Assembly (NCBI GenBank): GCA_965644315.1
Contig: CBFFRQ010000149.1
Coordinates: forward strand, 1-64,000
Length of the DNA: 64,000 nucleotides
From: Caecitellus pseudoparvulus
Lineage: Eukaryota > Protista > Bigyra: Bicosoecida
Direction of reading: 5' to 3'
A program made the translations under genes and the position numbers. Below are positions 19,135 to 53,506 of the stretch, piece after piece. The notes below the pieces were generated by a model, which had not been told where the DNA came from, made no database searches, and worked only from the letters and a program-made list of their open reading frames with translations. Position 1 is the first letter of the stretch; each line of letters starts with the position of its first letter.

Positions 19135-19202
19135 TAATATAATTTACTTTAATTTTTTAATTAATAAAATTATAAATTTAAACCACTTAAAGAAATAATT
19201 AT

Positions 19203-19634: not shown

Positions 19635-19739
19635 GGCAATTTAAGATATAACAAAACATAATTTAATTTAATTTTTTAATTAATAAAATTATATATAATA
19701 AAAACTACTTAAAGAGATAATTATAATATTGTTTATAAA

Positions 19740-20999
19740 ATGCAAAAAATACAACTAGTAAAATATAATATATCTAATAAATGGTATTCTTACGATGGAA
19801 AGCAACATAAAATAACAGATAAGAACCCAGACCAAGGGTTTATTTTATTTAATGGTTATGAAATGAATAAAAAAGGTTTAGAAAAGTTTTATGATGATAT
19901 GAATATATGGAGCGAACAAATATATAATTTAGAACGTAAAAGCAAAACAGGCAAACAACTAACAAAAATAAACGTAGGAAAATTTAAGAGTTTAGACTCC
20001 TTATTTTTTACTTTAATTAATGATACTAAATATTTTAAAAATCAATATATTGACATTGAACACGACCCAATAACAGAAAAAGAGGAAATATACCGCCAAG
20101 GGTGCTATAATTCAGGGTTAATTTATAAAAGCAAAGAAAAAGACCCAGAAACAGGCGAACCCAAAGTATTTAAAAAAGTTAAAGCTTATGATTTTAAAAA
20201 CTTTTATTTAGGTTTATGTAATTCAACGCATAAAAATTCAATACGTAAAATACCATATAAAGAAGGCGAGGTTAAATTATTAGATAAATTAGATTTTAAT
20301 AAACCCCCTTTCGGAATGTTCAAGGTTAAAATTAAATCTTCACATCCTGATATTTTTAAAGTGTTTTCTTTTTCAAAGGATAATATTTATACACATACGG
20401 ATATAAAAACGGCTTATTTTCTAATGAAATATAAAAATATGGTTGATTCAATGGAATTAATAACAGATGAAGAAGACAACGCCATAATATACACAGAAGA
20501 TAAATTAATAACAATTGGTAATTTATTTAATTATTATTATAAGTTCATTACAGAAGGACGAAAAAAACACCCAGAAAATAAATTATTAAAATATTTAGGT
20601 TCGCATTATTACACGCGATTATATCCACAACGTAAGCCGTTTTATGTTAGCAGAGATAATCCAAAAAGTGCAATTTATCATATGCACCATATAGAATTAA
20701 GTATAATTAATGGTAAAGTAGAATCAAAATATTATATGCTTAAAACATTAGCCCCCAAAAAATCGGCAATACGTCTTCGCCCTTATGTTGAATCATACGC
20801 ACGGCATAAAATGTATAGTTTATTAATGGAATCAAAATATAAAATAAATTTAGATGATGTTATAAGAGTATATATTGACGGTGTAATTTTAAAGAAACGA
20901 ATTAAAAAAAAATTAAAACCTATTGAATTAGTAAAAGAGGAAAAATACCATAATAAAAATATTCAATTAGACGGCAACATATGCAATATAATAAATTAA
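19740..20999 (+). CDS. Short, divergent family-B (protein-primed-like) DNA polymerase, outer element
   Basis: Motif A-like AYDFKNFY, motif B-like LLKYLGSHYY, motif C-like RVYIDGV; position next to helicase and integrase. Confidence 0.65.
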   Translation: MQKIQLVKYNISNKWYSYDGKQHKITDKNPDQGFILFNGYEMNKKGLEKFYDDMNIWSEQIYNLERKSKTGKQLTKINVGKFKSLDSLFFTLINDTKYFKNQYIDIEHDPITEKEEIYRQGCYNSGLIYKSKEKDPETGEPKVFKKVKAYDFKNFYLGLCNSTHKNSIRKIPYKEGEVKLLDKLDFNKPPFGMFKVKIKSSHPDIFKVFSFSKDNIYTHTDIKTAYFLMKYKNMVDSMELITDEEDNAIIYTEDKLITIGNLFNYYYKFITEGRKKHPENKLLKYLGSHYYTRLYPQRKPFYVSRDNPKSAIYHMHHIELSIINGKVESKYYMLKTLAPKKSAIRLRPYVESYARHKMYSLLMESKYKINLDDVIRVYIDGVILKKRIKKKLKPIELVKEEKYHNKNIQLDGNICNIIN

Positions 21000-21000
21000 A

Positions 21001-21098
21001 TTATTTTTTATTTTTTTTATCAAAATCTTTTATTAGTTCCTCTGCTGTTTTTATTAATTCCGTTCGTGGCTCATATGTTGCGTCCTTCTTTCTGTAAC
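21001..21098 (-). pseudogene. Detached C-terminal chromodomain part of the outer rve integrase
   Basis: Reads (G)YRKKDATYEPRTELIKTAEELIKDFDKKNKK* and joins in frame to ...YYLVWWD at 38801. Confidence 0.9.
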
Positions 21099-21103
21099 CA
21101 TCC
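21099..21103. repeat. Left TSD CATCC (inner element)
   Basis: Identical CATCC at 38801-38805, both copies flanking the TIRs. Confidence 0.95.
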
Positions 21104-21521
21104 AAAAAAAAGGGATGGGTGGGTGTTTAGTGTAAAACACCACCCCCCGGTAGATACATACGTAATGCGTGGCTAAAGCCACTATATTTAATGGTTCATT
21201 TTATAGTAATTTAATAGTCAATAAAATATATATTATTTAAGGTATATTTAAAAACAAGAAATAGTAAATTATAGGAAATATAAAAAAGTAATAAGTTAAA
21301 ACATTATTTCCTATTTCCTTAATTTCTCTTTTTTTTATGGATTTTTAAATATTATTATAATTTTCTTAAAATAGACTTTGAGAAAGAAAATATAAGATAT
21401 AGGAAAAGTCTCTCTTAATCGCATGTGTTATACTTTTAGTGAATGAGTAAGTAAATATCTCTCTTAATTGCGGTGTGTGTCCCCTTCAAGAACAATTTAA
21501 ACGCAATATTAAAAAATAAAT
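21104..21521 (+). repeat. Left TIR of inner element (418 bp)
   Basis: Reverse complement of 38383-38800. Confidence 0.95.
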
Positions 21522-21707
21522 AACATAAAAGTGAATTATGTATTAGTAATATATATGAGTATGAAACCGAAAATTTCTATGAAAAATAGAAAATCATACT
21601 ATAAAAAGGAACTAACATTTAGTAGTAGTAAATCTTTTGTAAGGAATTTTATTATTGAAATTTAAGATGTAGAAGACCTAAAAAATGAAGATTTTTATAT
21701 ACACATA

Positions 21708-22097
21708 ATGTTATATTTTACTCATAAAAAAGAAAGTAATGAAGAATATTTAAATCATATTAAGTTAAATATAGACCTTTATTACAATTTAAGAAAAGTT
21801 TTATCTTCAGATTTACTAAATGATTATTTTCAACAAAGTGAAAATATTAATTTATATGATGAAAGGAATGAATTTAATACAACATATGGTGAACATCGTG
21901 TGAGTAAAGACAATTTTTCATTTGTAGCGTTTAAGTTAGAAAAGAAAAAGCATTTTTATGGATATAATTGCTTAACTGATGATCAATTTAATTGGTTATG
22001 GTTCATTATACATGAGTATATTAGTAGACATATGAAAAGTGGAACTAAAAATTCACGTAGTAGATACATGAACGCAATACTAAAAAATAAAGTATAA
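21708..22097 (+). CDS. Hypothetical protein
   Basis: 129-aa ORF in AT-rich DNA, followed by a hairpin at 22149-22169. Confidence 0.5.
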   Translation: MLYFTHKKESNEEYLNHIKLNIDLYYNLRKVLSSDLLNDYFQQSENINLYDERNEFNTTYGEHRVSKDNFSFVAFKLEKKKHFYGYNCLTDDQFNWLWFIIHEYISRHMKSGTKNSRSRYMNAILKNKV

Positions 22098-22229
22098 GAG
22101 TATAGTATAGGGGTTTAGTGTTTTCCCCCTTTGAGTTTTATAGAATTATCTTCATAATAATTATGAGGAGAATTTAAAAAATAAAAAAATTACTTAAAGA
22201 TAAATTTCGTATTGTAATTATAATAGCAA

Positions 22230-23933
22230 ATGGTCGTATTTAGTGTAATGACAATTAAGAATTTACTTAATGAAAACAAAATAGAAGATGTCAAACAGTA
22301 TGTGCAAAAATACTTTTTTAAGACTACAGATAGTTATTTTTTTAAGAATGTGCAAACTGGGAAATATGATAACTTCAAGCAAAAAGACTTAAGACAATAT
22401 ATCCCAAAAGATTTAACTAATCAAGATTATATTGAAGAGAACAATTTAAAATCAAATAGACAAACAAAATTTAATTTGTTTGATTATATGGTAAGTTCTG
22501 AATTTTGTGATTGTTCCAATAATGTACAATATGGTATATTTCCAGATACAGATGATGATATTGTATCCATTACAAGAAATATTAAGGGTAAAGCCTTAAC
22601 TCAAAAATATTTAAATATGGTTAAACCTTTACCTTTTGATTTAAGTGAATGTAAAGACATAAAAGATAAAGATTTTTTAAAAGAAATTGGAGTTATTGAT
22701 AATCATATTAAGGAAGTACTATGTGGGGGAAATATTGCTATGTTTGAATATTTACGTTTATTTTTTGCTTTTTCAATTGCTGGTGTAAAGGTGCGAAAAG
22801 CAATCTTTATGTTATCAGAAGAGAGAACAGGAAAAGGAATATACTTAAACTTCTTAGATCGTGTGCTTGGCGAAAGAATGCTTAAAACATCCTCAACCGA
22901 AACTATAACAAAGTACACAAAACCATTAGAAGGGGTTGTATTAGTAAATATTGATGAGCTACCAGAACTAAGAGGAAATTTACTTATACAAGATAAACTG
23001 AAAGGATTAATAACTGAAGATAAATTTGATTGCCGTGATATGTACAGTGTAGGATACACTCAAACAAATACATTTAACATAATTATAACGACAAATATTG
23101 AAGGATCAATTAATTTGAGTCAATCAAACAAAGAGCGGTATATATGCCCCGATGTATCAGACCATCGTAAAGGTGATTTTAAGTATTTCCAAAGTGTCAT
23201 TAAGGCTATGAATTGTAAGGGGGTAATACCTGCATATTTTAATCATATGAGAAAGCTTTATGAAGAAAACAAAGATTTTAATTTTGATATTATGCCAAAT
23301 TCAAGAACAAGGGATGAAAAAATTATATCTGCTCTTCCTCCTTTATACAAGTATATCAAAGATGAATTTATATTTAATAATGCTGATATGGATATAGAAT
23401 GCAAGCAATTATTGGATGAATACAATACGAACGCAAAATTTAAAATGACCCTTCATAGATTACATAAAGATTTAAAAAAGATAGGTATTATTAAAACTAC
23501 TGTATCTGTAAATGGTTCAACAAAGAGAAAATTTATTGTACCTGTTGAAACATTACGCAAAATATTTATAAGTAAAAGATGGTATGACCCAGAAATAGAA
23601 GATGATGAAGCACCAGAAGAAGAGGTATCAGTTGATGACATGGATTATATTAAAGTTTTGTATGCAAAACATCCTGAAAAGTTCAAAGAGTTTATGTCAA
23701 TTTTAGAAGGGAAGAAACCAAAACCAATAACAGTAGAATCAAAAAAATCAAAACCAAAAAAAGTTAAATTATCTGAAAACAAGAAAATATTCAAGAAAGA
23801 AAAGGAAGCCAAAGCAAAAGCAAAGAAAGAGAAAACAGAAAAGGAAATTAAAGAATACAAAAAGAAAGCAACAAAAGCAAGTAAGAACGGAAAATTAATA
23901 ACTAAAGAAAATGATAATTTAGGAATTTTTTAA
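22230..23933 (+). CDS. SF3 (D5-like) helicase, inner element
   Basis: Variant Walker A SEERTGKG, Walker B VNIDE, motif C IITTN; collinear with the 17413 helicase. Confidence 0.8.
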   Translation: MVVFSVMTIKNLLNENKIEDVKQYVQKYFFKTTDSYFFKNVQTGKYDNFKQKDLRQYIPKDLTNQDYIEENNLKSNRQTKFNLFDYMVSSEFCDCSNNVQYGIFPDTDDDIVSITRNIKGKALTQKYLNMVKPLPFDLSECKDIKDKDFLKEIGVIDNHIKEVLCGGNIAMFEYLRLFFAFSIAGVKVRKAIFMLSEERTGKGIYLNFLDRVLGERMLKTSSTETITKYTKPLEGVVLVNIDELPELRGNLLIQDKLKGLITEDKFDCRDMYSVGYTQTNTFNIIITTNIEGSINLSQSNKERYICPDVSDHRKGDFKYFQSVIKAMNCKGVIPAYFNHMRKLYEENKDFNFDIMPNSRTRDEKIISALPPLYKYIKDEFIFNNADMDIECKQLLDEYNTNAKFKMTLHRLHKDLKKIGIIKTTVSVNGSTKRKFIVPVETLRKIFISKRWYDPEIEDDEAPEEEVSVDDMDYIKVLYAKHPEKFKEFMSILEGKKPKPITVESKKSKPKKVKLSENKKIFKKEKEAKAKAKKEKTEKEIKEYKKKATKASKNGKLITKENDNLGIF

Positions 23934-23977
23934 TTAAATGACCTAAGGATAAATTACGTATTTACGATATAATAGAT

Positions 23978-24322
23978 ATGGTAAATATGAATAAGTATAT
24001 TGTAAGAAGAAATGAAGAGAAGGTAGGAGGACATACTCAACATGATATGTATATTGAAGCAAAGGATGGAGAAGAAATAAATTTTGATACCATCAAAGAA
24101 CTATATGGTCATATTGTCCCAAAGATAGATAAAAAATATGATGTTGATGAACTTGTTGTACTTGGACTTCGTAAAGATGGCATTATGAATATTAAAGGGT
24201 ATGGATCAACTATTGCCGAAACATTAGATAATTTAGATGAGTACCTAAATGGTAAGGTAAAAGTACAATCAAAGTTTCAATCTGTAAGATCATTAACTAT
24301 TTCATGGTTAGTGGAAGAATAA
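23978..24322 (+). CDS. Hypothetical protein between helicase and PolB
   Basis: 114-aa ORF with the upstream variant motif ACCTAAGGA. Confidence 0.6.
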   Translation: MVNMNKYIVRRNEEKVGGHTQHDMYIEAKDGEEINFDTIKELYGHIVPKIDKKYDVDELVVLGLRKDGIMNIKGYGSTIAETLDNLDEYLNGKVKVQSKFQSVRSLTISWLVEE

Positions 24323-24365
24323 ATTAATAAAATGACTTAAAGATAAGATTAGTATTTTATAATAT

Positions 24366-25604
24366 ATGATAGTATATTATAAAGACTCAGTATCAAGAAC
24401 TTATTTTTCATATGATGGAGGAAAGGTAAAGAAGAGCTATAAAAAAGCAAATGGGTATGAGATGTTAAAGAGCTTTGGAATAGATGCAGATGAAAACGGA
24501 CTCATAGAGTATTATGAAAAGATTCAAGAATATTCGAATGAATTAGAAAAATACTTATCCAATATACCAAGTACACGAAATCCTAAAAGAATGTTATTTA
24601 AAGGACTGGATCTAAGATTCTTTAAAAAGGATGGATGTAATACCTCACTAATGAATACTTTACTGAGCAATACACGCAAAGATAAGAAGAATTTGAAATC
24701 CTATGAACATATGACATATGAAGAATATAAATTTATGGATCAATCATACGATTCAGGTTTAATTGCAGGTACACCATACAAAGGTAAAGTATATGCTTAT
24801 GATCAAAAGAAATTTTATTCAATGACTTATGGATGTAGAAAAAGAAATTTTAAGTTTCCAGTAAAAAGAGGAAGATTTGAAACATTAACAGAGACACCCG
24901 AAAAGTTTGAATATGGATATTATCATATTAAAGTTGTTTCATCGGATCCAAGAGCAAAATTTCTTATTGGCTTTTCTAAGAAAAATTATTATGATCATTT
25001 TACATTGAATAAACTGAAATTTTTTCGTGATTGGGTCGGCCTAAATCTTAAATGGGAAATTATACAGGATGGTAAACCAAATGCTTTAATATATGATAAT
25101 GATACATTAGTAGATTCACATATTATTTTTGGATGGTATCAAGATATACTAATGAAAGCAAATGATAAATTACCAAAGAACCCTCTTATTAAGTTTATGT
25201 TAAATAATATGTTTGGATATCAAAAAATTAAACATCGGCCAATTTATAGAAAACTATCAAGTATTCAAAGCAAAACCGAAGAGGAACAAAAAAATATTTT
25301 ACCAATTCTTAGTAAGTCTTATGTAAACAAGAAAGGTGAACGTGTGTATTATACAGTAAAAAGAGAGCGTATATTCTTATATACAACTGCAAGAATGGGA
25401 TATTTTCTACCTGCCACTTGTAGAGCTAAGATGTCAAATTTAATAGCTCCAATTCTTGATGATGTAGTAAGGATATATATTGATGGTTTCATATGTAAAA
25501 AGAATCATGATGAAGTAATAACAAAGTTTATTTGTCAGGATCATAAGTACCACAATAAGACAATAGATATTAAAAGCTCACAAACAATTTACTTTTTGGA
25601 TTGA
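24366..25604 (+). CDS. Short, divergent family-B (protein-primed-like) DNA polymerase, inner element
   Basis: AYDQKKFY, IKFMLNNMFG and RIYIDGF motifs; clearly homologous to the 19740 ORF (SYDG, SGLI, FSK.N.Y, KYHNK). Confidence 0.7.
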   Translation: MIVYYKDSVSRTYFSYDGGKVKKSYKKANGYEMLKSFGIDADENGLIEYYEKIQEYSNELEKYLSNIPSTRNPKRMLFKGLDLRFFKKDGCNTSLMNTLLSNTRKDKKNLKSYEHMTYEEYKFMDQSYDSGLIAGTPYKGKVYAYDQKKFYSMTYGCRKRNFKFPVKRGRFETLTETPEKFEYGYYHIKVVSSDPRAKFLIGFSKKNYYDHFTLNKLKFFRDWVGLNLKWEIIQDGKPNALIYDNDTLVDSHIIFGWYQDILMKANDKLPKNPLIKFMLNNMFGYQKIKHRPIYRKLSSIQSKTEEEQKNILPILSKSYVNKKGERVYYTVKRERIFLYTTARMGYFLPATCRAKMSNLIAPILDDVVRIYIDGFICKKNHDEVITKFICQDHKYHNKTIDIKSSQTIYFLD

Positions 25605-26599
25605 TTCTTCTTTTTTTCTTCATATTCCTTTACTATATCTGGAACTTGTTTTTTAATTCTTATTTTGTTTTCCCAAGTTGCATTTTTCTTAGGAAAACCT
25701 TTCCACCATACTTTATATTGTCCTCTCCTATCATCTATTATTTCTCTGACTTCAAATGTTTCTTCACCACTGGCTAGTTTAAGTTCTGATTCTGCAAATG
25801 ATACATTTGGTAAATAATTTAATTGATATCGTACTGGAACATTTCCTTTATATGCCAGTATTTGTTTAATTTTTCTAGCTTTCTTACTAAATCTTCTATC
25901 TCCTGTTCTAAATCCTCCTTGAACGGGATTTCCTAATGAATCTTCGGCCTGAGATGGTGTCAGCTTATAATATACAAGATCACCTATTTTAAATTTTGGA
26001 GAGATCATCTTAATTTTTGCAAATTTAAATTTGTTTGGTTCAACTTTTCTTATTTTGTTTAATTTAGTTCTTACCTGAGATAAAATATCTGTCCATTCTC
26101 TATAAGGTTTATTAGTTTCTTCTTCTTTTTTGTTCATGTATCCATTAAATAGTCTTCCAAGTGTTTTATTTAATCTTTCCACATTTGCCATTTGCTGGTG
26201 TCTTCCTTTCATTGCTGTTTTTTTTAAAATTGATTCATCAAATAGAAATTTGGCAAAATCACCTTTAAACTCTCCTCCTCCATCTGTTCTTATACTTGCT
26301 TCTGGTAAATTAATATGTTTTCGTTTAATCATCTTTTTAAATGCACCTAAAACAGTATTTGGTCTTTTAGTTTTTAGTGGTTCAATATCAAATTCATTAG
26401 TCCATAAATCAACAACAACTAATAAATATTTAAATCCTTCTTTGGTCTTTGGTAGCTCTAATAAATCAGCTTGAAAATTATAATCTTCTTCAGGATAGAT
26501 TACCCCTTTAACTTTTGTAAACTGAGTTTCTTTAGGTTGTGGTTTAGTAAAAGTCTCATCAATTCCCAATTCAGATATTAACTCTTTTATTTTGCTCAT
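25589..26599 (-). CDS. rve (retroviral-type DDE) integrase with C-terminal chromodomain, intact
   Basis: FQADL, RTDGGGEF and VERLNKTL catalytic motifs; chromodomain FEVREII...YKVWWKGF...ATWE. Confidence 0.92.
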   Translation of the reverse strand: MSKIKELISELGIDETFTKPQPKETQFTKVKGVIYPEEDYNFQADLLELPKTKEGFKYLLVVVDLWTNEFDIEPLKTKRPNTVLGAFKKMIKRKHINLPEASIRTDGGGEFKGDFAKFLFDESILKKTAMKGRHQQMANVERLNKTLGRLFNGYMNKKEEETNKPYREWTDILSQVRTKLNKIRKVEPNKFKFAKIKMISPKFKIGDLVYYKLTPSQAEDSLGNPVQGGFRTGDRRFSKKARKIKQILAYKGNVPVRYQLNYLPNVSFAESELKLASGEETFEVREIIDDRRGQYKVWWKGFPKKNATWENKIRIKKQVPDIVKEYEEKKKNQSKK

Positions 26600-26658
26600 T
26601 ATATAATTAATTAATAAAATAACTTAAACATAAAATGCGTTTTAAGGAATAAACTAAA

Positions 26659-26967
26659 ATGAAAATTGTTAATGCGAGATATTGTACTTTAAATGGAAAG
26701 CTATTGACTTGTCCCAGACAGAACACATCTATCAGATTTGAAGATAAAGAATTAATTCTAACATTCACAACTCCCTTATTTATAACTAACGTTCATGCAT
26801 ATGATTTTAAGAGCTGTGTAGAGGTAGATTCAGCAAGCTATAATGTAATACTAAATTTTCCAGATATTGGAGTATCACTTGTTTATAAGTTTACTAAATC
26901 AGGATTTGAAAAAATTAATGATGCAATTAATGAGAGATTAAAACTTATTGGTGAATCAGAAAAATAA
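26659..26967 (+). CDS. Hypothetical protein
   Basis: 102-aa ORF with ACTTAAACA upstream and a hairpin downstream. Confidence 0.6.
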   Translation: MKIVNARYCTLNGKLLTCPRQNTSIRFEDKELILTFTTPLFITNVHAYDFKSCVEVDSASYNVILNFPDIGVSLVYKFTKSGFEKINDAINERLKLIGESEK

Positions 26968-27022
26968 CTCAATTTATTATTTCAAGAAGCAAAACATAAT
27001 TATTTATATTTTGTTTCAAGTA

Positions 27023-27253
27023 CTATTCTTTCATTTTATTTTGATCATCCAATACATCAATAATTATTTTTATTCCAAAAGTTTCAATGAGATCTTTTGT
27101 ATTCTGTTCAATGATTTTTTCTCTTTTTTCTTGAATGGCTTTCGTCATAATGGAATACCAGATGCCATTGTGTTTTCTCCTTTGCTTTGATCTTGAAATC
27201 ATATTATATAAGTAATATATAAATGACAGAATTTTCAAAAACTGTTTATTCAA
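27023..27253 (-). CDS. Hypothetical small protein (start likely internal, MISRSK)
   Basis: ORF with protein-like composition, converging on the 26984 hairpin. Confidence 0.4.
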   Translation of the reverse strand: MNKQFLKILSFIYYLYNMISRSKQRRKHNGIWYSIMTKAIQEKREKIIEQNTKDLIETFGIKIIIDVLDDQNKMKE

Positions 27254-27696
27254 TGACAGAATTTAAAAAAGACTTTGAAACATGTATGAATATGTTTGAT
27301 TACATTCTTTATAAAGTAAAAGATTCTCCATTAGAAGATAGAATTGATATGAGTTTGAGAACAAGACAAGAGAACTTACAACATTTATTTAATGTCTATC
27401 ATGATTGCGTAAAAATAGATGAGTACAAGAGTGATTGTAATTTAATAAGATGTAGAATTAAGCGATTATCTGAAGAAGATGATAAAGACTTTAGGAGAGA
27501 GTACAACAGACTATACACATACAGACTAAGAAAGGAAATTACATTAGAACATTGGAAAGATATTTATGAAAGATTGAAAAAGAAATATAGGAGAAAAGGA
27601 AGGGATAGAGAAGCTAGAAGAAAGAGAATTGAAAGGCAAGATAAATTAGATTTTGATAAATGGACTAAAATGAAAAAAATAACAATGATAATATAA
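27223..27696 (+). CDS. Hypothetical basic protein
   Basis: 157-aa ORF; duplicated MTEF start; hairpin downstream at 27711-27743. Confidence 0.55.
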   Translation: MTEFSKTVYSMTEFKKDFETCMNMFDYILYKVKDSPLEDRIDMSLRTRQENLQHLFNVYHDCVKIDEYKSDCNLIRCRIKRLSEEDDKDFRREYNRLYTYRLRKEITLEHWKDIYERLKKKYRRKGRDREARRKRIERQDKLDFDKWTKMKKITMII

Positions 27697-27770
27697 TAAT
27701 ATAGTTTTTTAAGAAGCAAAATATAATTATTTATATTTTGTTTTAAATAAAAGTTCTTTGAAAGTCCTTT

Positions 27771-28334
27771 TCAGAATTTATTACGCAATTTGAACGTGGT
27801 GCGAATGACAGAATAAAGAGTATCATAACTATCAAAAATATTTAGTACGTCCTCACTACAAGCACTAATTAGTTCCATTCTTTTACGTTCCATTTCTGCT
27901 ACATTTGCAGTATTACGACCTTCACATATTGATTTAAAAAGCGAGTTTGAAGGTGTCAGAACAGCAATGTTTGATTCATCAACACCAAGATACTTTGCTT
28001 CACCAATAGAGGAACAAATCAAAATTAGTTTGTAATCTTTCAAATCCTTTTTTACTTTATCTACATATTCCTTAGCTTTCATTAAATAATTAATATCTGC
28101 GTTTGTATCACCATCAACAGCGACAGATTGGCCAACATCAATTAAATAGACACCTGAATCTGCTTTAAGTTTGTTTGCCAGTGTAGATTTTCCAGTCATG
28201 CAACTCATAACAATAGCACCAAATCTAATTTTAGACCATTTCTTCTTTTTTGATTTTCCAAAACATGAATAAGCGGTTTTAGCACCAATTGATACCAAAC
28301 CAGCACCTAAAATTAATGCATTTTCCATTTCCAT
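27771..28334 (-). CDS. N-terminally hydrophobic P-loop-like protein (inner)
   Basis: FGAIVMSCMTGKST; 187 aa; close homolog at 40220-40783. Confidence 0.6.
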   Translation of the reverse strand: MEMENALILGAGLVSIGAKTAYSCFGKSKKKKWSKIRFGAIVMSCMTGKSTLANKLKADSGVYLIDVGQSVAVDGDTNADINYLMKAKEYVDKVKKDLKDYKLILICSSIGEAKYLGVDESNIAVLTPSNSLFKSICEGRNTANVAEMERKRMELISACSEDVLNIFDSYDTLYSVIRTTFKLRNKF

Positions 28335-28380
28335 AAATATATTATAGTAAGAGAAAAAAACTATATTTCCATAAATATAA

Positions 28381-28665
28381 TCATTTTTTATTAAAGAAGA
28401 ATTGCTTATTATATGCTTTCATTGCATCTTTTAAGTTTGTCTCATCACCCCATAAAATATAATATGATAAGTATCCTGCTCTTTTTGGGTCTTTAGTTTC
28501 TAAATCTCTTTCATGTCTGGCTCTATAATTCTTTCTTTTCTCTTTGTCCTTGTGGTCAATAAATGTGCTACCTTCCTTTTGTCCAAATGAAGTTTTTGAA
28601 CCATCTTTAAATATAGCTGTAAATCTTTTATCCTTTCTTGCTGATGGTATTATATCTAGAATCAT
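28381..28665 (-). CDS. Small conserved viral protein (RK.KRF...FGQ..G..F/YIDHKD...RH type)
   Basis: Close homolog at 41980-42255; the pattern is recalled from small NCLDV/virophage proteins. Confidence 0.65.
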   Translation of the reverse strand: MILDIIPSARKDKRFTAIFKDGSKTSFGQKEGSTFIDHKDKEKRKNYRARHERDLETKDPKRAGYLSYYILWGDETNLKDAMKAYNKQFFFNKK

Positions 28666-28702
28666 ATATACTTATACTACAAATTTTATTTTATATTTAA
28701 AT

Positions 28703-31243: not shown

Positions 31244-31291
31244 ATATTATATAGTGTATAAAATTAATTTTTATAAACTACAGTGTACAAT

Positions 31292-32134
31292 TTAATAATG
31301 TTCTTGGGCTGTTCTATATTGCTTAATTATTAAAGATAATTTGACTGAACCACCTTTCAATTTGACCTCTTGATATTCATCATCTAATAAAATAAAATCC
31401 ATTTGGTTAATTTGATTGTTTTCTAATAAATCATGATTAAAGAATATTTCATCATCTGATACATAACTTGAGTATGTACCTGTTCCTGATTCTATATTTA
31501 AACTTAATAGTACTGGATACTTAAGCCTGTTTAATCCTGAACCAAAGAATGAATTATTTAAAATACCATTTTTCATACAAATAAAAACTTTACTGGTACT
31601 AATTAAATTTGGATAATTTAAACCTTCCATATTATCGGATGGATCAATTTTTAATGCTTCACCATCATTATACTGTTCTTGTGTAAAACCTATTTTATTC
31701 CAAAACTTACCATAATTACCAACTGTTGAAAATTTAACATAATCAGTATCATTATTCACAATTTTTAATTTTAATGTTGATTGTTCTTGTGATACTGAAA
31801 CATTACCACCAGCATTATTTATTGTTGTTTGTAAATATGTTGCAAATTGCTCAGTAGATGAAAAAACTAAATTTTCGCTTATAGTGTGTTCTGTTGTTGC
31901 TCCATTTTCTATTTCAATAGAAAATGTAGCTCTATCAATTGGGTTAAATTGTGGAAATGTATTAGGGACGGATGCAGATTGAACAATAAGACGGTGGATA
32001 TAATCACCACCTGATAAAACTAATGGTGTAGTATTAAATTCAGTTGTCCATTCAAAAGATGTATCACTTGGTCTTTTGTCAATTGCACTATTAATATAAA
32101 CTTCTAAAGTATTATTGATGTCAATTAAGCTCAT
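31292..32134 (-). CDS. Putative PLV-type minor capsid protein (penton)
   Basis: 280 aa; VYINS, SASVPNTF and C-terminal FILLDDEYQEVKLKGGSVKLSLII pattern typical of PLV/Polinton pentons; adjacent to the MCP. Confidence 0.7.
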   Translation of the reverse strand: MSLIDINNTLEVYINSAIDKRPSDTSFEWTTEFNTTPLVLSGGDYIHRLIVQSASVPNTFPQFNPIDRATFSIEIENGATTEHTISENLVFSSTEQFATYLQTTINNAGGNVSVSQEQSTLKLKIVNNDTDYVKFSTVGNYGKFWNKIGFTQEQYNDGEALKIDPSDNMEGLNYPNLISTSKVFICMKNGILNNSFFGSGLNRLKYPVLLSLNIESGTGTYSSYVSDDEIFFNHDLLENNQINQMDFILLDDEYQEVKLKGGSVKLSLIIKQYRTAQEHY

Positions 32135-32215
32135 TTTATATATTCTTAATTGAGAAAATAAAAATTCAATTATTCTTTTATTGTTTTATAAAATAAAAGA
32201 ATACTATATATTTAT

Positions 32216-33544
32216 TTATTCAACTACTTTTGCTACACCACCTGCTAGTTCTAATTGTCTTTTGAATTTTACTAAGCATACTAAATTTTTATTTGCATAA
32301 TTTGCAGGTGCAGCAGATGTATCAAAATCAACTACTAAAGCAGATGAACCAACTAAACTATTAAAACCATTTTCTGTTGCATGTTGGCTGTCTTCTGGTG
32401 TTTTTAGGAACAGACCGCCAAGGACTTGACATTTATTATTACTTCTTTTCATTTGATCTGAATATTCAGAAGCATAGCTCTTACTGTGTAGTTCTGGTTT
32501 TGCGGTTCTTAATACTCCTTCAAAATGATCAGTATATAGAGATTCACCATTTGCACCATTTACATTTGCATAGGGTTCTCCTGTAAATTGTATACGATAA
32601 TTTGAAACAAAATTAAAATTTGTGCTAGTAGTCCATAAAAAATCGTTGACTGGGTCTGTATTAAGTGTATTAAATCCATTAGCATCAGAACTTCCTGCGG
32701 GAATGGTAACATAAGCAGGTAATAAAAGTGTGCTGATAATATCACGCTTTTTAATATTAAATTGGTGTGAATGTGTGGTTGCTTGTTGAAGGGTTTGATA
32801 AGATAAATCATAACCATAAAATCTATTTACAATTCCTTTCATACTTGAACTATTTGAAGTTGGATCAACCTTTTTTAACATCAGTTGAGCACCTAGATTT
32901 GTTAATTGGTATGCTTCCATACTAAATTTTACATTATTTAATTCATATTTTATTGGTGCTGTTGGAGCTGTTCCACCAGATACAAATAACATATCTAATT
33001 TACTTTGAAGAGTAATTTGTATGTTAATAGGAGTGTTGCCAACAGGAATTAATTTCTTTAAATCTAAACCAAAAAGAGACATAGGAATTGAAAAACTATA
33101 ACTTGATCCACCTGTTGCATCAAATACAACATTTTGAAGAGCCTTAACGTTATGAATTGCTAGTTCTTCTGCACTCATATTTAATTTTTTATTCATCATA
33201 GCTACTAAATATGCATGTTTGCTTAAATTTACAACTAAAGCACCTCCTACATAAACTTTTATTTGTTCAATAGCTGAGCAAATATCGCCACACAGTTTTA
33301 CATTTGAACCTGCTTGACCTCCAGAAACTTTAAATTCACCATCTAATGATAGCGTATCAGCTTGTGGAACATGTGAGCCTGTTTGAATTGTAGCATTTAG
33401 ATTAGTATTTAAATTACCAAATCCGCTTCGTGTTCCTTGTAAATCATATTGTAATCTTGAACGTGAATTAACAAGTTTATTTGCTTTCGTTCTTACACCA
33501 TCCAAAACACCACCTAATAGATAAATTTCATCTTTCTTTTCCAT
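32216..33544 (-). CDS. Putative PLV-type double-jelly-roll major capsid protein
   Basis: 442 aa, beta-rich; SAIEQIKVYVGGALV and FSIPMSLFG...LIPV...INIQITL patterns; lies between ATPase and penton. Confidence 0.72.
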   Translation of the reverse strand: MEKKDEIYLLGGVLDGVRTKANKLVNSRSRLQYDLQGTRSGFGNLNTNLNATIQTGSHVPQADTLSLDGEFKVSGGQAGSNVKLCGDICSAIEQIKVYVGGALVVNLSKHAYLVAMMNKKLNMSAEELAIHNVKALQNVVFDATGGSSYSFSIPMSLFGLDLKKLIPVGNTPINIQITLQSKLDMLFVSGGTAPTAPIKYELNNVKFSMEAYQLTNLGAQLMLKKVDPTSNSSSMKGIVNRFYGYDLSYQTLQQATTHSHQFNIKKRDIISTLLLPAYVTIPAGSSDANGFNTLNTDPVNDFLWTTSTNFNFVSNYRIQFTGEPYANVNGANGESLYTDHFEGVLRTAKPELHSKSYASEYSDQMKRSNNKCQVLGGLFLKTPEDSQHATENGFNSLVGSSALVVDFDTSAAPANYANKNLVCLVKFKRQLELAGGVAKVVE

Positions 33545-33590
33545 TATATATATATTTATAAAAGAAAAAATATTTTACTAAAAGAATTAA

Positions 33591-34316
33591 TTAAAACTTA
33601 CTATATATTTCTTTCATTTTGTTATTATAAATCTTCCCTGTTTTCTTGTTCAATAAAATAAAACTATACTTTTCATTCAAATTATCATATACAAGGTCTT
33701 TGAAATCATCTGTATTTATATATTGTGAAAAATTATCATCATATACTTTCCATATTTCACCATCTGAGCAATTCCAATAAATAGAAACTAAAGTTGAATT
33801 AAGCATTCTTACATCACGTCCTAAAAAATGATACTTTTGTGTTGCTATTATGCATCCTGTGTTCTTATGTCTACCACTTGCAAACAATTCAGATAAAAAA
33901 TTTGTTCTATGATTTGTATTCATTTCATGGTTATATGCCATATCATCAAAAATAAAAATATGTGGAACTTTTGGATTTAATCCTTTGTAAATACTCTTTA
34001 ATTCTTCAAAATCTAAAAAATCCATAATTAATAATTGCTCCTCATCTAGCTTTAGTTTGTCTGCCATTTTTGATATATGTCTTATTGTTGTATCTGTTCC
34101 ACTGATTACAATAATTCTGCTATCTTCTGATTTCGTGTAATAATCTTTACACCAATTCCATAATATGTTATGTATCATTTGAGTTTTTCCTGCTTGACTG
34201 GGCCCTATTAATATCATTCGTGGATGTTCTCCTATAATTGGATGAATTAAACTTTTATATTTTTTATCTTTGGTTATGTCATCTTCTTCAAATGTATAAA
34301 CTTTAAATTCTGTCAT
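33591..34316 (-). CDS. A32/FtsK-HerA packaging ATPase (inner)
   Basis: GPSQAGKT, FIFDD, SGRH and IATQ motifs. Confidence 0.9.
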   Translation of the reverse strand: MTEFKVYTFEEDDITKDKKYKSLIHPIIGEHPRMILIGPSQAGKTQMIHNILWNWCKDYYTKSEDSRIIVISGTDTTIRHISKMADKLKLDEEQLLIMDFLDFEELKSIYKGLNPKVPHIFIFDDMAYNHEMNTNHRTNFLSELFASGRHKNTGCIIATQKYHFLGRDVRMLNSTLVSIYWNCSDGEIWKVYDDNFSQYINTDDFKDLVYDNLNEKYSFILLNKKTGKIYNNKMKEIYSKF

Positions 34317-34337
34317 ATACTATTTATTTAGATTTTT

Positions 34338-36407
34338 TTATTGACCTCTTCCTTTTAAAATTCGCCCCTTTCTTGCTTGTGTTCTGCGTCCTTGGGCTTG
34401 TCCTCCACCTCCTCCTTCTATTCTACCAGCATAACTTTTTACAATATTATCTATTTTTCCTTCTTTTGCTTCTTGTGAAACAGTATCATATTCCTTTCTT
34501 GTATCAGGTGAAATAAAGTATGCCTTACGTTTAATTATGTCTTTCATTGTATCTTCTGTTATGCCCATTGATTTTATTAAAGCTTTCATATCTCTACTTG
34601 GTGAGCCTGATAATAATAAATCTATTTCCTGTCCAATAAATTCATCTGGATTTGCTCCACCCATTTTACTTACTTCAAATGTATCAATTAATCTATTTAG
34701 TTGTCCATCTTCTGCATCTGTTAATTCTCTTACTTCATCTCCTGCATCTGCTGGGGTTGGTGCGTCTGCTGGGGCTGGTGCATCTGCTGGTTCTGGTCTT
34801 CTTCTTGTTGTATATATTCCGCTTTCGGGGTTAGCTAGTATTCCAATTACTCGTTTAGCATATGCATTCGCCTTCTCGCCTGCATCCCTTGGTACTTTTT
34901 CCGCATTAACTTTAATTAAATCAAAAATTTGTTTTCCATAATAACCCATTTGTGTCTTATGCCCACCTGTTGGAGTCGTTATTTTATTGTCAGCTAAGTA
35001 CCTGTTTAATATATCATACAAAACTGATAAGTACTTTGGGGTTTTCTTAGCATTAACACTAGCAGTATACATTTTTTGCCCTAGTTTCTCTGGAGTTTCT
35101 TCTGTTTGCTTTAAAATACTATCTAATGAAATTTTCCCAAGAGTTAGTAATTGTCCAAGGTACAAATAATAAACCTCATTTCTTTGTGCATCTGGTAATG
35201 TACCATACTTAATATCCGCTCTTGCTTTTTGTTTTTGTTCTTCTATTTTATTAAAATCTATTTTAGAAATTACAATTACTTTATCTTCTAAGTTTAGTTT
35301 TGTATATTCTGGTATACCTTCTAATATTCCTTCAAATACTTCGGCAGATTTTGATGTGCTACTTTGTGTAATAATATCTACATCATCGGCTGTTATTGCT
35401 TTGTCTGTTCCTGTTGTATTAAGTGTATTTCTTGATCTTTCAACTAATTTGTTTATTATATTTATCATATTTGTTTTTGCAACACCAGATACACCTTTTA
35501 TTGCTTCTATAAATTCTCGTGCTATCTTATCGGCTAAATCTTGGTATTCTTTATCTTTGTTTTCTCTTCTTACTTCATCTCCTCTTTGTTGAACTCTTTC
35601 TAATAATTTAAGTCGGTTTGCTCTTAGCTCTGCTTGGTTTGGAACTACTGCCCCCGCCCCTGTATCCGCCACTGGTTCAGGTCGTCTTGGTGCTGGTGCT
35701 TCTGTTGTTGGTTTATCTACTGTATGAATACCCCCACTAGTGTCTATCATTTGGGCAGTTCCCGCTCCTTCTTTGCTCTCACCTGCTCCCCCTTGTGCTG
35801 GTGCTTGTGGTTCTGCTGGTGGTTCTGCTGGTGGTTCTGTTGGTGGTTGTGCTGGTGGCTGGTCTGAAGCACCACTGAATTTTTGGTTTATTTCTTGTTG
35901 CATTTGATTTATTGGTTGTTGTTGTGCTATGAATGAAGGATTAAATTTGTTCTTTAAAAATGATTCAGTAGCTTTTGATCTTAAATTTAATACTTCAGCT
36001 TGTGAAAGGTTATGACGTTTTCCAAAAGCATCAATATAATTTAATATATTTTTTAATTCTTTTTGTTCTTCATCTAACTCTAAAGTTTCTGGTGTTAATC
36101 CTAAACTTCTAAATAATTTATTTTGTATTTCTTCTTCTTTTTTTTGCTCATTAAAAAAAGCTTCTTCAAATGATTCATCTGTTGTACCCCATCCTTCATT
36201 GTAGAACTGTTTGTTATGTAGTATTAAATCGGCATTTGTAATTGCTTCATCTAAATTTATATCTTCCTCTTCTTCTGCTTCTTGAGGTACTAATAAATCA
36301 GTTGTATAATTCAATAAGCCTAGATTTACAAATTGTGTATTTCTTTCCTCATTCAACTCTTCCTGCATGTTATAAATTTGCTCATCTGTCAAATTAAATG
36401 GATTCAT
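34338..36407 (-). CDS. Hypothetical 689-aa protein with Pro/Ala-rich repeats and a basic C-terminus (possible core protein)
   Basis: Long ORF with PAEPPAEP and PADAPAPADA repeats, upstream of the ATPase. Confidence 0.65.
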   Translation of the reverse strand: MNPFNLTDEQIYNMQEELNEERNTQFVNLGLLNYTTDLLVPQEAEEEEDINLDEAITNADLILHNKQFYNEGWGTTDESFEEAFFNEQKKEEEIQNKLFRSLGLTPETLELDEEQKELKNILNYIDAFGKRHNLSQAEVLNLRSKATESFLKNKFNPSFIAQQQPINQMQQEINQKFSGASDQPPAQPPTEPPAEPPAEPQAPAQGGAGESKEGAGTAQMIDTSGGIHTVDKPTTEAPAPRRPEPVADTGAGAVVPNQAELRANRLKLLERVQQRGDEVRRENKDKEYQDLADKIAREFIEAIKGVSGVAKTNMINIINKLVERSRNTLNTTGTDKAITADDVDIITQSSTSKSAEVFEGILEGIPEYTKLNLEDKVIVISKIDFNKIEEQKQKARADIKYGTLPDAQRNEVYYLYLGQLLTLGKISLDSILKQTEETPEKLGQKMYTASVNAKKTPKYLSVLYDILNRYLADNKITTPTGGHKTQMGYYGKQIFDLIKVNAEKVPRDAGEKANAYAKRVIGILANPESGIYTTRRRPEPADAPAPADAPTPADAGDEVRELTDAEDGQLNRLIDTFEVSKMGGANPDEFIGQEIDLLLSGSPSRDMKALIKSMGITEDTMKDIIKRKAYFISPDTRKEYDTVSQEAKEGKIDNIVKSYAGRIEGGGGGQAQGRRTQARKGRILKGRGQ

Positions 36408-36441
36408 ATAATATAGACTAATAAAATATTAATTTATACTT

Positions 36442-36936
36442 TCAATAATTTTCTTCCTCCATTTGTTTCAAAAGATCCTCTATTATGTAATCATCATTTA
36501 TACTCTTATTTTTTACTGGTTGTTCAACCTCCTTTATTATCTCTGGTTTAATAATTTTTACATATTTTTTTATTCGCTCTTCTTCCTGCAATCTTGCTTT
36601 TTGTTCTCTTCTCCTTCTATATGTTTCTTGTGCCTTCTTTCGTGCATTTATTAATTGCTGTTTTTTCTTCTCAGATAATTGCTTTCTTTGCTTTAATTCC
36701 CTTTTTGGTTTATAATAATATTTGGTTTCTATATTTGAAATAACTGGAACATTTTCCTTAGTTTGAATATCAACAAAATCATCTTTTACATTTTCAAACT
36801 TATTTTCAGTCTTAGTTTCAGTTTCTTTCAATCTTTTTAACTCTGAACACTGAAAGACTGAAAATTTCATTTTTATATAATTCAAAAATTCTAATACTCT
36901 TTCATAAATTAAAAATAAAAAATACTCAATTATCAT
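36442..36936 (-). CDS. Hypothetical basic/coiled-coil protein (start probably ~36870)
   Basis: ORF containing QLSEKKKQQLINARKKAQE. Confidence 0.55.
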   Translation of the reverse strand: MIIEYFLFLIYERVLEFLNYIKMKFSVFQCSELKRLKETETKTENKFENVKDDFVDIQTKENVPVISNIETKYYYKPKRELKQRKQLSEKKKQQLINARKKAQETYRRRREQKARLQEEERIKKYVKIIKPEIIKEVEQPVKNKSINDDYIIEDLLKQMEEENY

Positions 36937-36968
36937 TTTACAGAATATAAAATTAGTCTATAAAATAT

Positions 36969-37337
36969 TTAATTTGATGTAGCCATTAATAGTTCCTTAT
37001 GTACATTATCCATTTTCATTTTTGTTGCTTCCTTTTGTGTCTTGTCTTTTTCATTTTCAATTTCTTTTTCATATTCTATAAATTCTTCATATGATAGGTA
37101 ATCTTCTGAAAAATCTAAGTGTTGTACCAAATAATAATCACTACAACTTTTAATTAATTCAATACGCTTTTGATTTACTTCTTTTAAATGATCAATATAT
37201 TCTTCATACTCTTTTCTTGTTGGTTCTTTTCCATTAAATGGATCTTCATAATCATATTGTTTATTCATATTATATATTACTTTCATAAAAAAATCTTTCT
37301 TAAAAACCAATTGATGGTTTACTATAATATAATTCAA
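36969..37337 (-). CDS. Hypothetical protein
   Basis: Acidic helical ORF in a co-oriented gene run. Confidence 0.5.
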   Translation of the reverse strand: MNYIIVNHQLVFKKDFFMKVIYNMNKQYDYEDPFNGKEPTRKEYEEYIDHLKEVNQKRIELIKSCSDYYLVQHLDFSEDYLSYEEFIEYEKEIENEKDKTQKEATKMKMDNVHKELLMATSN

Positions 37338-38096
37338 TATTTGTTGGTGCTACACTTTTTAAAATAAAATCAATTGAATGGGCTTCTATTAAATTTTTTG
37401 GTGCTGGTTTTGGTTTTAAGACTGTTGTGTTTGGAATTAAAACTTTACTTGTTTCAGCTATTAAATCACCTTCCATAATGTACGATTTAATTATACTACT
37501 ATCAAAAATATCTTTATAGCTATTACGAATGCCTAAAACTTTATTTTTAAATTCCCTTATACTTTTACTTAGTTCTTGTGTTGGTGATGCACCAATATTA
37601 TATACAATTGCAGGAATACCATATTCATTTGAAGCATACACAGCTTCAAAACCTCCTAAAGAATGACCCGTAAAATATATGTTTTGAATACCTACTTCAT
37701 TTAAAGTATTTAGCATTTTATTTAGTCTCTTTGTATTAATTAATAAATTTAATGAAAAACTACCTCCTGCAATAATACTTAAATCATCAATAAAATCAAT
37801 TACGTCTGTTTGTGTCCCTCTAAATACAATAAATGCTTTTGGTGTTTCTGATATATCAACAAATACAGCCATTTTATTATTACTTAATGTTTCATTATAA
37901 ACTAAATTACTTGTAATAAATGGACGTGTTGAAGGGCTATCATATACTAATTTGCACGCTACAGCACATTGGTAAGCGTCCCATGGTATAGGTACTTGAT
38001 AAATATCTTTTTTTGTAATTGTTGATGTTTGTAATGTTTGTGTATTTGCTGGATTACCTAAAAAAAGTCATTAAAATAGTTTATAACTTTATCCAT
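37300..38096 (-). CDS. Class-3 lipase/alpha-beta hydrolase (apparent frameshift at A7, 38060-38066)
   Basis: IVFRGT, GHSLGG, GDLI and AHS motifs. The frame stays open upstream of the track start (37872) to ~38068; removing one base from the run joins it to ATG 38096. Confidence 0.8.
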
Positions 38097-38121
38097 ATAT
38101 TATTATACATAGATAAAAATT

Positions 38122-38364
38122 TTATTCAACAATTAATGTATCCTCTGTTTGAATTTTATAAATCTTCTCTTTTACTTTTAATTCTTGTTTATTTTCTGTT
38201 TTCATTCTATTACTTAGCAATTGTAATTTTTCTTTCATTTCAGCTTGAAGTTCTTTTAGTTCTTTCTTTAGGTTTTGTATGTTCTCCTTTTGCTCTTCAA
38301 TATCAAAAGCTAATAAAGATAAATCCATGGTTAAGTACTTTTTAGATAGGTTCTTTTTTTGCAT
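38122..38364 (-). CDS. Small coiled-coil hypothetical protein
   Basis: Heptad-like EEQKENIQNLKKELKELQAEM. Confidence 0.45.
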   Translation of the reverse strand: MQKKNLSKKYLTMDLSLLAFDIEEQKENIQNLKKELKELQAEMKEKLQLLSNRMKTENKQELKVKEKIYKIQTEDTLIVE

Positions 38365-38382
38365 GATTATTATAGTCTCATA

Positions 38383-38800
38383 ATTTATTTTTTAATATTG
38401 CGTTTAAATTGTTCTTGAAGGGGACACACACCGCAATTAAGAGAGATATTTACTTACTCATTCACTAAAAGTATAACACATGCGATTAAGAGAGACTTTT
38501 CCTATATCTTATATTTTCTTTCTCAAAGTCTATTTTAAGAAAATTATAATAATATTTAAAAATCCATAAAAAAAAGAGAAATTAAGGAAATAGGAAATAA
38601 TGTTTTAACTTATTACTTTTTTATATTTCCTATAATTTACTATTTCTTGTTTTTAAATATACCTTAAATAATATATATTTTATTGACTATTAAATTACTA
38701 TAAAATGAACCATTAAATATAGTGGCTTTAGCCACGCATTACGTATGTATCTACCGGGGGGTGGTGTTTTACACTAAACACCCACCCATCCCTTTTTTTT
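38383..38800 (-). repeat. Right TIR of inner element
   Basis: Reverse complement of 21104-21521. Confidence 0.95.
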
Positions 38801-39719
38801 CATCCCACCAAACCAAATAATAAATTTTACCTTTAATTTTTTTCTTATCAAGAATCTTTTTAATTTTAAATAATTCTTGGTCTTCCTCTGCGTGTTTTAA
38901 ATCATTTTCAACATAGCTAACATTATCCATATTGTTTAACATATATCTATATTTTGTGGGATATCTTAGAACCTGTGTTATTTTATGTGGAAATCGTGAC
39001 CACCTCCGATCGCCTTCTCTAAATCTATTTATATCTTGTTGTTCCTGTGCTAGTGCATTTTCTGGAACATCAAGCCGATATTTTATAATATCCCCAACTT
39101 TAAATTTAGGGTGTCCTAATGGTTTCATATTTACAAAATGTAGCCCTCTTTCTTTTTCTTCCCTAAATTTATTTACTTTCTCACGTATTAAATTTAATAC
39201 TTCTTTATTATTCCATTCATTAAATGGCTTGTCTGTTTTAAGTTCTACTGCGTTCATATATGAATTTAAAAGCCTTGATAAAGTTTTATTTAATCGTTCT
39301 ACAACGCTCATTTGTTTATGTCTTCCCTTCTTTGCGACCCTTAATAAATAACCGTTATCATAAAGAAAGCTCTTCAAAAGCCCTTTAAATTCTGCCCCAC
39401 TATCAACTTGAAAATTAGCCCCTTCTTTAGGTTGAATATATGGGCGTTTTGAAATTGTTTTGAGTGCGTTTAAAACTGTAAGAGGGGTTTTATTTTTCAG
39501 GGGTTCAAAATCGAAATTATTAGTTTCCAAATCGCAAATAACCAATAAATATTTATATCCATCTTTTGTATGAGGTAAAAATAATAAATCCATCATAAAA
39601 TTATAGCCTTTAAATGGGAATATACGATTTTTAACACTACTAAAATTTTTTTCTTTCTCTTTAAAAATCTTAAAATCGCTATCATCTGTGCCTCCTATAT
39701 CGTCAATTATTTTATTCAT
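38769..39719 (-). CDS. rve integrase of the outer element, truncated in its chromodomain by the nested element
   Basis: MMDLL, QVDSGAEF and VERLNKTL motifs; the chromodomain breaks at YYLVWWD and reads into the inner TIR (EKKGMGGCLV*). Reconstructed length is 338 aa vs 336 aa for the inner homolog. Confidence 0.92.
   Translation of the reverse strand: MNKIIDDIGGTDDSDFKIFKEKEKNFSSVKNRIFPFKGYNFMMDLLFLPHTKDGYKYLLVICDLETNNFDFEPLKNKTPLTVLNALKTISKRPYIQPKEGANFQVDSGAEFKGLLKSFLYDNGYLLRVAKKGRHKQMSVVERLNKTLSRLLNSYMNAVELKTDKPFNEWNNKEVLNLIREKVNKFREEKERGLHFVNMKPLGHPKFKVGDIIKYRLDVPENALAQEQQDINRFREGDRRWSRFPHKITQVLRYPTKYRYMLNNMDNVSYVENDLKHAEEDQELFKIKKILDKKKIKGKIYYLVWWDEKKGMGGCLV
38801..38805. repeat. Right TSD CATCC (inner element)
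   Basis: Identical to 21099-21103. Confidence 0.95.
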
Positions 39720-41304: not shown

Positions 41305-41469
41305 TTTATTAATTATATATATTTTCTTCTTTTTAAGTCGTTTTTTTTTTCATTTTCATTCATTTTCATTATGTGACGTGGCACAACCCTGCGACCTCCA
41401 GCCCACTGGGTGGCACATCATATGAGTTTTTTCTACGGTCTATATATACAAGCCCCCCACACACACGAG

Positions 41470-53459: not shown

Positions 53460-53506
53460 ATAATTAAATCTTTAAGTGGTTTTGTTTAAGTATAAAAATA
53501 ACATAT

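Follow-up and report, generated by a model that had tools for sequence, protein, structure and literature searches.

A polinton-like virus nested in the integrase gene of a virophage within a host gene of Caecitellus pseudoparvulus

A stretch of 64,000 nucleotides (nt) from the bicosoecid Caecitellus pseudoparvulus (assembly GCA_965644315.1, contig CBFFRQ010000149.1, positions 1 to 64,000 of the forward strand; here called the window) carries three levels of nested sequence: a polinton-like virus (PLV) lies within the integrase gene of a virophage, and the virophage lies within a host gene for an RCC1-repeat protein. This nesting is confirmed and is resolved to the base. It is probably explained by an ordinary, untargeted insertion, in which the PLV landed in the virophage integrase gene since both families colonise the same protist genome.

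Nested architecture and uninterrupted copies

Both elements possess inverted ends, 5-bp target-site duplications and an rve integrase gene. The inner element extends from 21104 to 38800 (17,697 nt), and its terminal inverted repeats (TIRs) of 418 nt, at 21104-21521 on the forward (+) strand and at 38383-38800 on the reverse (-) strand, are 100% complementary. CATCC flanks it on both sides (21099-21103 and 38801-38805, +). The outer element occupies 16127-54811; its left TIR of about 690 nt (16127-16816, +) and its right TIR (54120-54811, -) align at 690 of 692 nt (99.7%), with a 2-nt gap within a T run, and CTATT is present on both sides (16122-16126 and 54812-54816, +). Given the local composition, the chance of an exact 5-mer duplication is p 7e-4 for the inner and p 3.7e-4 for the outer element. 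The G+C content of the elements (block 16127-54811) is 23.5-29.8% and that of the flanks 64-66%, and the coding density is 83% in the outer and 87% in the inner element. Relative to the left outer repeat, the sequencing run coded X1 has two extra T at 16459, and the mismatch of 2 nt between the left and right outer repeats therefore probably reflects a homopolymer error.

The original prediction, which was made from the sequence alone, held that both junctions are exactly reversible, and separate translation of the pieces bore this out. The 5' piece of the virophage integrase gene (38801-39719, -) provides 306 amino acids (aa) and 1 nt, and the detached 3' piece (21001-21098, -) continues in matching phase with 31 aa and the stop codon, giving the 338-aa integrase that deletion of 21104-38800 together with one CATCC had been said to restore. 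The 5' piece of the host gene (12991-16126, +; 1045 aa to the junction; Pfam WD40_RLD, 1e-67, and RCC1_2, 4.5e-52) is continued by a 3' piece (54817-60637, +) with RCC1 and IPT/TIG repeats (Pfam TIG, 8.5e-14 and 4.1e-13) and a hydrophobic C-terminal part. Phase is kept across the outer element for 769 codons further, in agreement with the claim that deletion of 16127-54811 and one CTATT restores the host frame. The rough doubling of the virophage to 38.7 kb was also found, from 20,983 nt without the insert to a composite of 38,685 nt (1.84-fold), and the proposed recent age of both insertions is supported by the identical or near-identical ends, the intact duplications and the empty forms among the reads.

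The reads were examined as assembled contigs in four of the 18 listed runs (X1, X3, X5 and X8). The host was cultured or sequenced as an organism in the coded runs X1-X4, and the source sample may be one of X1 and X3, so that these are not independent; X5 and X8 were the ones used among the 13 listed runs with a share below 0.5. Un-nested copies of the outer element had been proposed as a check, and the uninterrupted integrase gene, with a joint 21098>38801 that omits the inner element and one duplication, was found in all four runs. The joint is spanned by single contigs with at least 255 letters per side in X5 and X8, which are a few percent off the window and represent diverged strains, and the uninterrupted virophage copy in X1 is identical to the window across 17779-21103. 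At the host site, a contig of X5 covers 15000-16123 and then continues for 2614 letters off the outer repeat, and the host contig of X1 ends at 16127; these contigs suggest that an empty allele exists. The depths in X1 were 76 for the host, 65 for the outer element, 92-161 for the listed pieces of the inner body and 242 for the inner repeat, values that are not copy numbers and give a hint of a few copies of each family.

It had also been claimed that the insertion damages the integrase. The insertion splits the C-terminal chromodomain only and leaves the columns of the D-D-E core intact. The 5' piece retains the catalytic core and the first half of the chromodomain, with conserved D, D and E columns and 44% identity to the inner integrase, and now reaches a stop within the inner repeat at 316 aa; the second half of the chromodomain is found on the 3' piece (Pfam Chromo, E 3.4e-4, profile positions 26-53). 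Among four related integrases aligned, that of locus L007 stops before any chromodomain. The end of the chromodomain is indeed cut off, but since the core is kept and L007 is naturally without a chromodomain, the damage was overstated. Most likely, the locus represents one disabled virophage copy beside an intact sister, and the 38.7-kb composite is probably too big for a capsid that serves a 21-kb genome, which would make it a packaging dead end.

Identity of the two elements and their shared genes

The outer element is, judged by its predicted proteins, a virophage, as originally predicted, and is a non-mavirus one with a Sputnik-type capsid and penton. Its 590-aa major capsid protein (44257-46029, -) matches Pfam Sputnik_MCP_1st (1.3e-54) and MCP_V20_C (1.3e-40), and its penton (46081-47199, -) matches V18-19 (6.7e-23). 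MCP_V20_C is carried by all 120 listed of the 271 homologues of this capsid protein. The criteria of the virophage class permit genomes of 15-45 kb, a range that includes the 20,983 nt of the outer element, and the capsid class was assigned under these criteria by Pfam models, not by study-group profiles (PMC9952930). Assignment to the EMALE/mavirus family was considered in view of the EMALE-like rve-chromo integrase and TIRs, and was rejected: in the PDB, Sputnik V20 (E 1.7e-25) is a nearer match to the capsid protein than mavirus is (E 6e-4).

The inner element is a PLV according to its modelled capsid fold, together with an A32-type ATPase, an rve-chromo integrase, a short PolB-like protein and no protease seen, and this identity had been predicted as well. 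The 442-aa open reading frame (ORF) of the major capsid protein (32216-33544, -) had no match in Pfam, virophage models included, or in phage records, and 17 matches were obtained among 1.84 billion representatives. A model based on an alignment of 17 sequences (16 homologues) reached a predicted local distance difference test (pLDDT) score of 83.8, compared with 28.8 for a single-sequence fold, and it adopted a double jelly-roll. Foldseek identified PBCV-1 VP54 (E 1.6e-15), which was also the best structural match (Z 28.3, root-mean-square deviation 2.8, 342 residues aligned), with Sputnik at Z 18.6. The packaging ATPase (33591-34316, -) matches Pfam Pox_A32 (7.7e-6), and the 336-aa integrase with an intact chromodomain (25589-26599, -) matches Pfam rve (3.7e-7), Chromo (2.7e-7) and chromodomains in the PDB. 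The non-virophage double jelly-roll capsid, the A32 ATPase, the TIRs and the length of 17,697 nt agree with a PLV, for which a range of 14-40 kb is given (PMC12220804, accessible part). As regards Polinton/Maverick features, the rve integrase is present and the polymerase-like protein (24366-25604, +) has just 412 aa. This protein had no Pfam or PDB sequence match, and a PolB-like profile gave 0 matches against the PDB; ESM Atlas placed it at 0.96 to a cluster of which 11% carries PF03175 DNA_pol_B_2, a weak lead. No protease was found in a Pfam scan of the 17 inner ORFs, which a divergent one could escape.

Six of the 17 inner proteins match outer ones in the same order and orientation. They comprise the SF3-like helicases (23% identity; outer, 573 aa, 17413-19134, +, Pfam DUF5906, 2e-17, and VapE-like, 5.8e-11; inner, 567 aa, 22230-23933, +, DUF5906, 8.5e-10), the short PolB-like proteins (27%; outer, 419 aa, 19740-20999, +), the integrases (44%), the P-loop-like proteins (52%; 187 aa each; outer, 40220-40783, -; inner, 27771-28334, -), the DUF5754 proteins (70%; outer, 91 aa, 41980-42255, -, Pfam 8.6e-16; inner, 94 aa, 28381-28665, -, Pfam 2.5e-15) and the fibre-like proteins (32%; outer, 635 aa, 42273-44180, -, BppL_N 3e-5; inner, 846 aa with repeats, 28703-31243, -, weak BppL_N). 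PolB-like motifs are aligned between the two polymerase-like proteins. The DNA identity between the elements reaches 73% over 292 nt at DUF5754, and the best DUF5754 match outside the pair was 50% in a low-sensitivity scan. A small ORF lies between helicase and PolB-like gene in the outer element (143 aa, 19203-19634, +; no Pfam match), and the inner element has one of 114 aa (23978-24322, +) with 77% identity to its counterpart in loci L002/L003. The capsid modules of the two elements are unrelated in sequence.

Related loci display similar combinations. The integrase and PolB-like protein of L003 are 85 and 72% identical to the inner ones, and its capsid protein just 25%; L001 has the same replication block with a virophage-like ATPase and protease. 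These patterns indicate that the replication block moves between capsid types. At 12643-14412, L003 is a close relative of the PLV by its integrase and PolB-like protein, with an adjacent helicase unmatched to the window helicase and an inverted capsid block, an arrangement that may represent a short-range swap of modules. When viral contigs were scanned for patterns, an approach that reaches close relatives only, no relative of either capsid, the P-loop protein or either terminus was detected; the capsid alignment has no conserved stretch usable for such a scan.

The motif ACTTAAA was found 10-70 nt upstream of six of 18 outer and three of 18 inner ORFs, compared with 0.50 and 0.31 in 2000 shuffles, and a looser form precedes six outer and five inner ORFs. 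The sites stand before replication, nuclease and small genes, and none before the capsid, penton, ATPase, protease or fibre genes. This distribution suggests common regulation of both elements, and it would lend indirect support to the predicted co-induction of both by one giant virus. Together, the shared genes and motif around unrelated capsids hint at a shared helper and at module swapping. Among the papers listed in literature searches for ACTTAAA, none was relevant, and the motif was thus not linked with any giant virus known so far. At 14 of 18 outer and 12 of 18 inner ORFs, a TATA was seen no more than 10 nt from the start, a count from very AT-rich DNA that has no shuffle control and was not used. 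A promoter-like block, ACCACTTAAAG, recurs at 16732-16835, 53424-53527 and 54104-54204; it stands in the terminal repeats and, at 53477, ahead of a 67-aa ORF.

Other genes of the virophage include two GIY-YIG nucleases (16879-17298, -, Pfam 4.4e-7; and 40846-41304, -, Pfam 1.1e-7), with DNA of the second 85% identical to the first across 297 nt. A putative maturation protease of 194 aa (47218-47802, -) is 32% identical to a syntenic L001 ORF that keeps His and Cys; its His/Asp/Cys spacing is what we take to be adenain-like, and it had no Pfam or PDB match. Beside it lies a putative P-loop packaging ATPase of 259 aa (47850-48629, -; weak AAA_22; 29% to an ATPase-like ORF of L001). A virophage stretch of 676 nt (41305-41980) has no ATG-initiated ORF of at least 36 aa, a G+C content above its surroundings and the repeated word GGGTGGCAC, and is a possible cis element. 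The 660-aa ORF at 51219-53201 has a two-part look and no significant Pfam family. Long loose ends in X1 at 16469, 16572, 18211 and 18865-18882 reveal further, related types of virophage, which have the terminal repeat or parts of the helicase in common.

The PLV further encodes a putative minor capsid protein of 280 aa (31292-32134, -), named by position and size only, which adjoins the capsid gene, has 32% identity to a syntenic L003 ORF and no Pfam match, and a lipase-like protein (37300-37872, -; weak Pfam Mbeg1-like and Lipase_3). Across 21663-24324, many sites distinguish the nested copy from the form in X1, X5 and X8, and X3 has both letters at several of them; the PLV family thus has diverged copies, of which the nested one is a minority type. 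A contig of X1 departs from the PLV at 27444 into (TTAGGG)n, a telomere-like repeat, which suggests that a chromosome end carries a truncated copy of the PLV. Rfam gave 0 matches.

Origin of the nesting

Under the preferred account, the virophage would have entered the host exon first, by its own rve integrase and a 5-bp staggered cut, and the PLV would have entered the virophage later in the same manner, by its own rve integrase and with no special aim. The nested virophage would then be a packaging dead end while intact sister copies carry the family on, and the PLV would lose nothing and stay mobile. More tentatively, the same transcription machinery, likely that of one giant virus, may activate both families; such shared activation would keep both in the same cells and might let replication and accessory genes swap.

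Several observations weigh against this account. Among the contigs listed, none bridges either nested junction, and an X1 contig traverses the left inner site without a fork. Together with an X1 repeat contig in which one extra letter differs from position 21103, they could speak for an assembly chimera of two repeat families that are separate in the genome, an explanation with hardly any probability: the insertion is flanked by an exact 5-bp duplication, the other insertions have duplications of that length too, and the read contigs behave as co-existing paths predict. By our own arithmetic, with words of 31 letters the empty path between both nested junctions has 25 letters on the left and 30 on the right. 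An X1 contig terminates exactly 30 letters beyond the joint, and the joint in X3, at a depth of 35 vs 84 nearby, has 25 letters on its short side, the size expected where nested and empty paths co-exist. Read support for the nested junctions is indirect.

A second point is that only two inner sites are known and one of them is in a virophage, which is compatible with a bias of the PLV towards DNA that is viral or rich in AT. The PLV might choose virophage DNA, or else silenced viral DNA rich in AT, as its target and so disable a competitor for the helper; its chromodomain could steer it there, or both elements could be replicated together in the factory of a giant virus. One of two sites would be a large fraction if the share of virophages in the genome is small, as it should be; the inner chromodomain is intact and the upstream motif is common to both elements. 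Elsewhere, 91% of type 1 Ngaro retrotransposons are located in EMALEs (PMC8547959), and five PLVs and nine virophages are nested in Halocafeteria (10.64898/2026.07.28.741278; both in the accessible parts of these sources). The second site was recognised from two loose ends in X1 at the PLV terminus, which enter GC-rich DNA and whose starting 5-mers are mutually reverse-complementary and unlike CATCC; these are likely both ends of one more PLV insertion, apparently in host-like DNA and with a different duplication. Such a site speaks against a viral preference, most virophage copies in X1 are intact and X5 and X8 show the intact form, and viral DNA tolerates insertion, so that selection alone could enrich nested copies (10.64898/2026.07.28.741278, accessible part). 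A viral preference is thus considered unlikely. The original prediction went further and regarded the inner element as a parasite of the virophage; with a second PLV site in host-like DNA and uninterrupted virophages in every run examined, targeted parasitism was left unsupported.

The third point concerns the target itself: a 7-nt word is common to it and the inner terminus, and the two would form a small junction hairpin (-4.9 kcal/mol). Microhomology between the PLV terminus and the chromodomain codons could thus have guided the insertion to a preferred site, and a count over both strands of the 21-kb outer DNA gives just two occurrences of CATCCC. The second site, however, begins with unrelated letters, the clean 5-bp duplications at both sites fit the action of an integrase, and the match is a single case; guidance of this kind is very improbable. 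Finally, ACTTAAA was chosen after inspection of the data and is present in L001 and L007 too, and ACTTAAAG is absent from L003, whose integrase is the one most closely related to that of the inner element.

The composite might also be mobile or reversible, either because the PLV inserted into a virophage genome while this was free and both integrated together, or because the PLV exits on induction and releases a working virophage. The outer ends are intact, the catalytic core survives and an intact sister could supply integrase. There was, however, no second composite locus in the runs examined, the composite is 1.84-fold oversized, we know of no shown route here for the precise loss of an rve element with one duplication, and the Ngaro retrotransposon, from which an example of excision comes, uses a tyrosine recombinase. 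In that example, reactivated EMALEs were without the Ngaro inserts of their endogenous source, which was taken as excision (PMC10945749, accessible part); the virophage class allows up to 45 kb (PMC9952930). A mobile or reversible composite is quite improbable.

The broadest proposal joins the shared genes to the nesting. PLV and virophage would share a single chassis, fitted with either of two capsids and dependent on one giant virus; the parts of this chassis would be helicase, small ORF, short PolB, rve-chromo integrase, P-loop, DUF5754 and fibre, with the same order and the same early motif. The PLV would fight its rival by preferring virophage DNA, and nested copies would feed capsid-swapped hybrids. 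This combination is doubtful, and the untargeted insertion of the PLV is retained as the probable origin of the locus.

Genomic surroundings, known systems and significance

Separately from the insertion, the host gene has a frameshift in a run of G near 56945. It lies downstream of the virophage, at a distance of 2.1 kb, and is either an assembly error or post-insertion decay. An apparent second RCC1-like gene at 1-5244 (-) faces away from the interrupted gene (12991-60637, +), with a 52-nt inverted match, and by this likeness the disrupted gene may have a paralogue at the left end of the window. The host flanks also carry COG6 and TTC4 genes and long open frames, and the sequence of the window occurs in marine metagenomes, features that fit a marine protist as host.

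The following comparisons refer to the accessible parts of the sources cited. In Halocafeteria seosinensis, viral sequences are insertion hotspots for other PLVs and virophages, with five PLVs and nine virophages inside other viral elements and both classes in one genome; the PLVs are likewise without protease, rve integrase, pPolB and GIY genes are shared, and TIRs, duplications and near-telomere copies are present (10.64898/2026.07.28.741278). That host, in contrast, has 47% GC and its elements 34-35%, compared with 64-66% and 23-30% here, and H. seosinensis was rejected by its GC content as the host of the present locus. The accessible text describes no PLV in a virophage integrase gene and no base-level empty alleles, which supplements may list (10.64898/2026.07.28.741278). 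The EMALEs of Cafeteria burkhardae are also AT-rich, TIR-bound elements with an rve-chromo integrase in a GC-rich host, interrupted by a mobile element, and they integrate without sequence specificity, mostly with 3-5 bp duplications and at 13 exon sites (PMC8547959). They are, however, all mavirus-like and their invader is the Ngaro retrotransposon (PMC8547959), whereas the virophage described here has a capsid nearer to Sputnik V20 and its invader is a capsid-coding PLV. In mosaic Polisuviricotina, replication and DDE-integrase modules are re-paired with other capsid modules, and tandem integration was proposed for this mosaicism (10.64898/2026.10.13.758929); here, by comparison, two full elements of the same layout, with unrelated capsids and accessory genes of up to 70% identity, lie one inside the other. 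In Gezel-14T / PgVV, a giant-virus-dependent PLV, the genes for replication and integration are preceded by a conserved motif that was taken as helper dependence, but this virus has the mimiviral early AAAATTGA, a tyrosine recombinase and TVpol (10.1101/2022.07.28.501842), and the motif here is ACTTAAA(G).

The literature searched, with subscription papers mostly outside reach, yielded no account of this locus and none of a virophage integrase gene interrupted by a PLV. PLV/virophage nesting and gene sharing are already known from Halocafeteria, and nesting alone is no surprise to specialists; the locus is a clean, base-resolved case with its empty form documented. The six-gene shared order and the shared motif, which the original prediction had overlooked, are more useful than the nesting. 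Endogenous virophages can serve as an inducible defence against giant viruses, and insertions that disable them therefore change that defence. With their common layout, accessory genes and motif, the two elements provide one system in which a shared helper of PLVs and virophages can be tested, and the same system is suited to testing nesting as a route for the exchange of capsid and replication modules.

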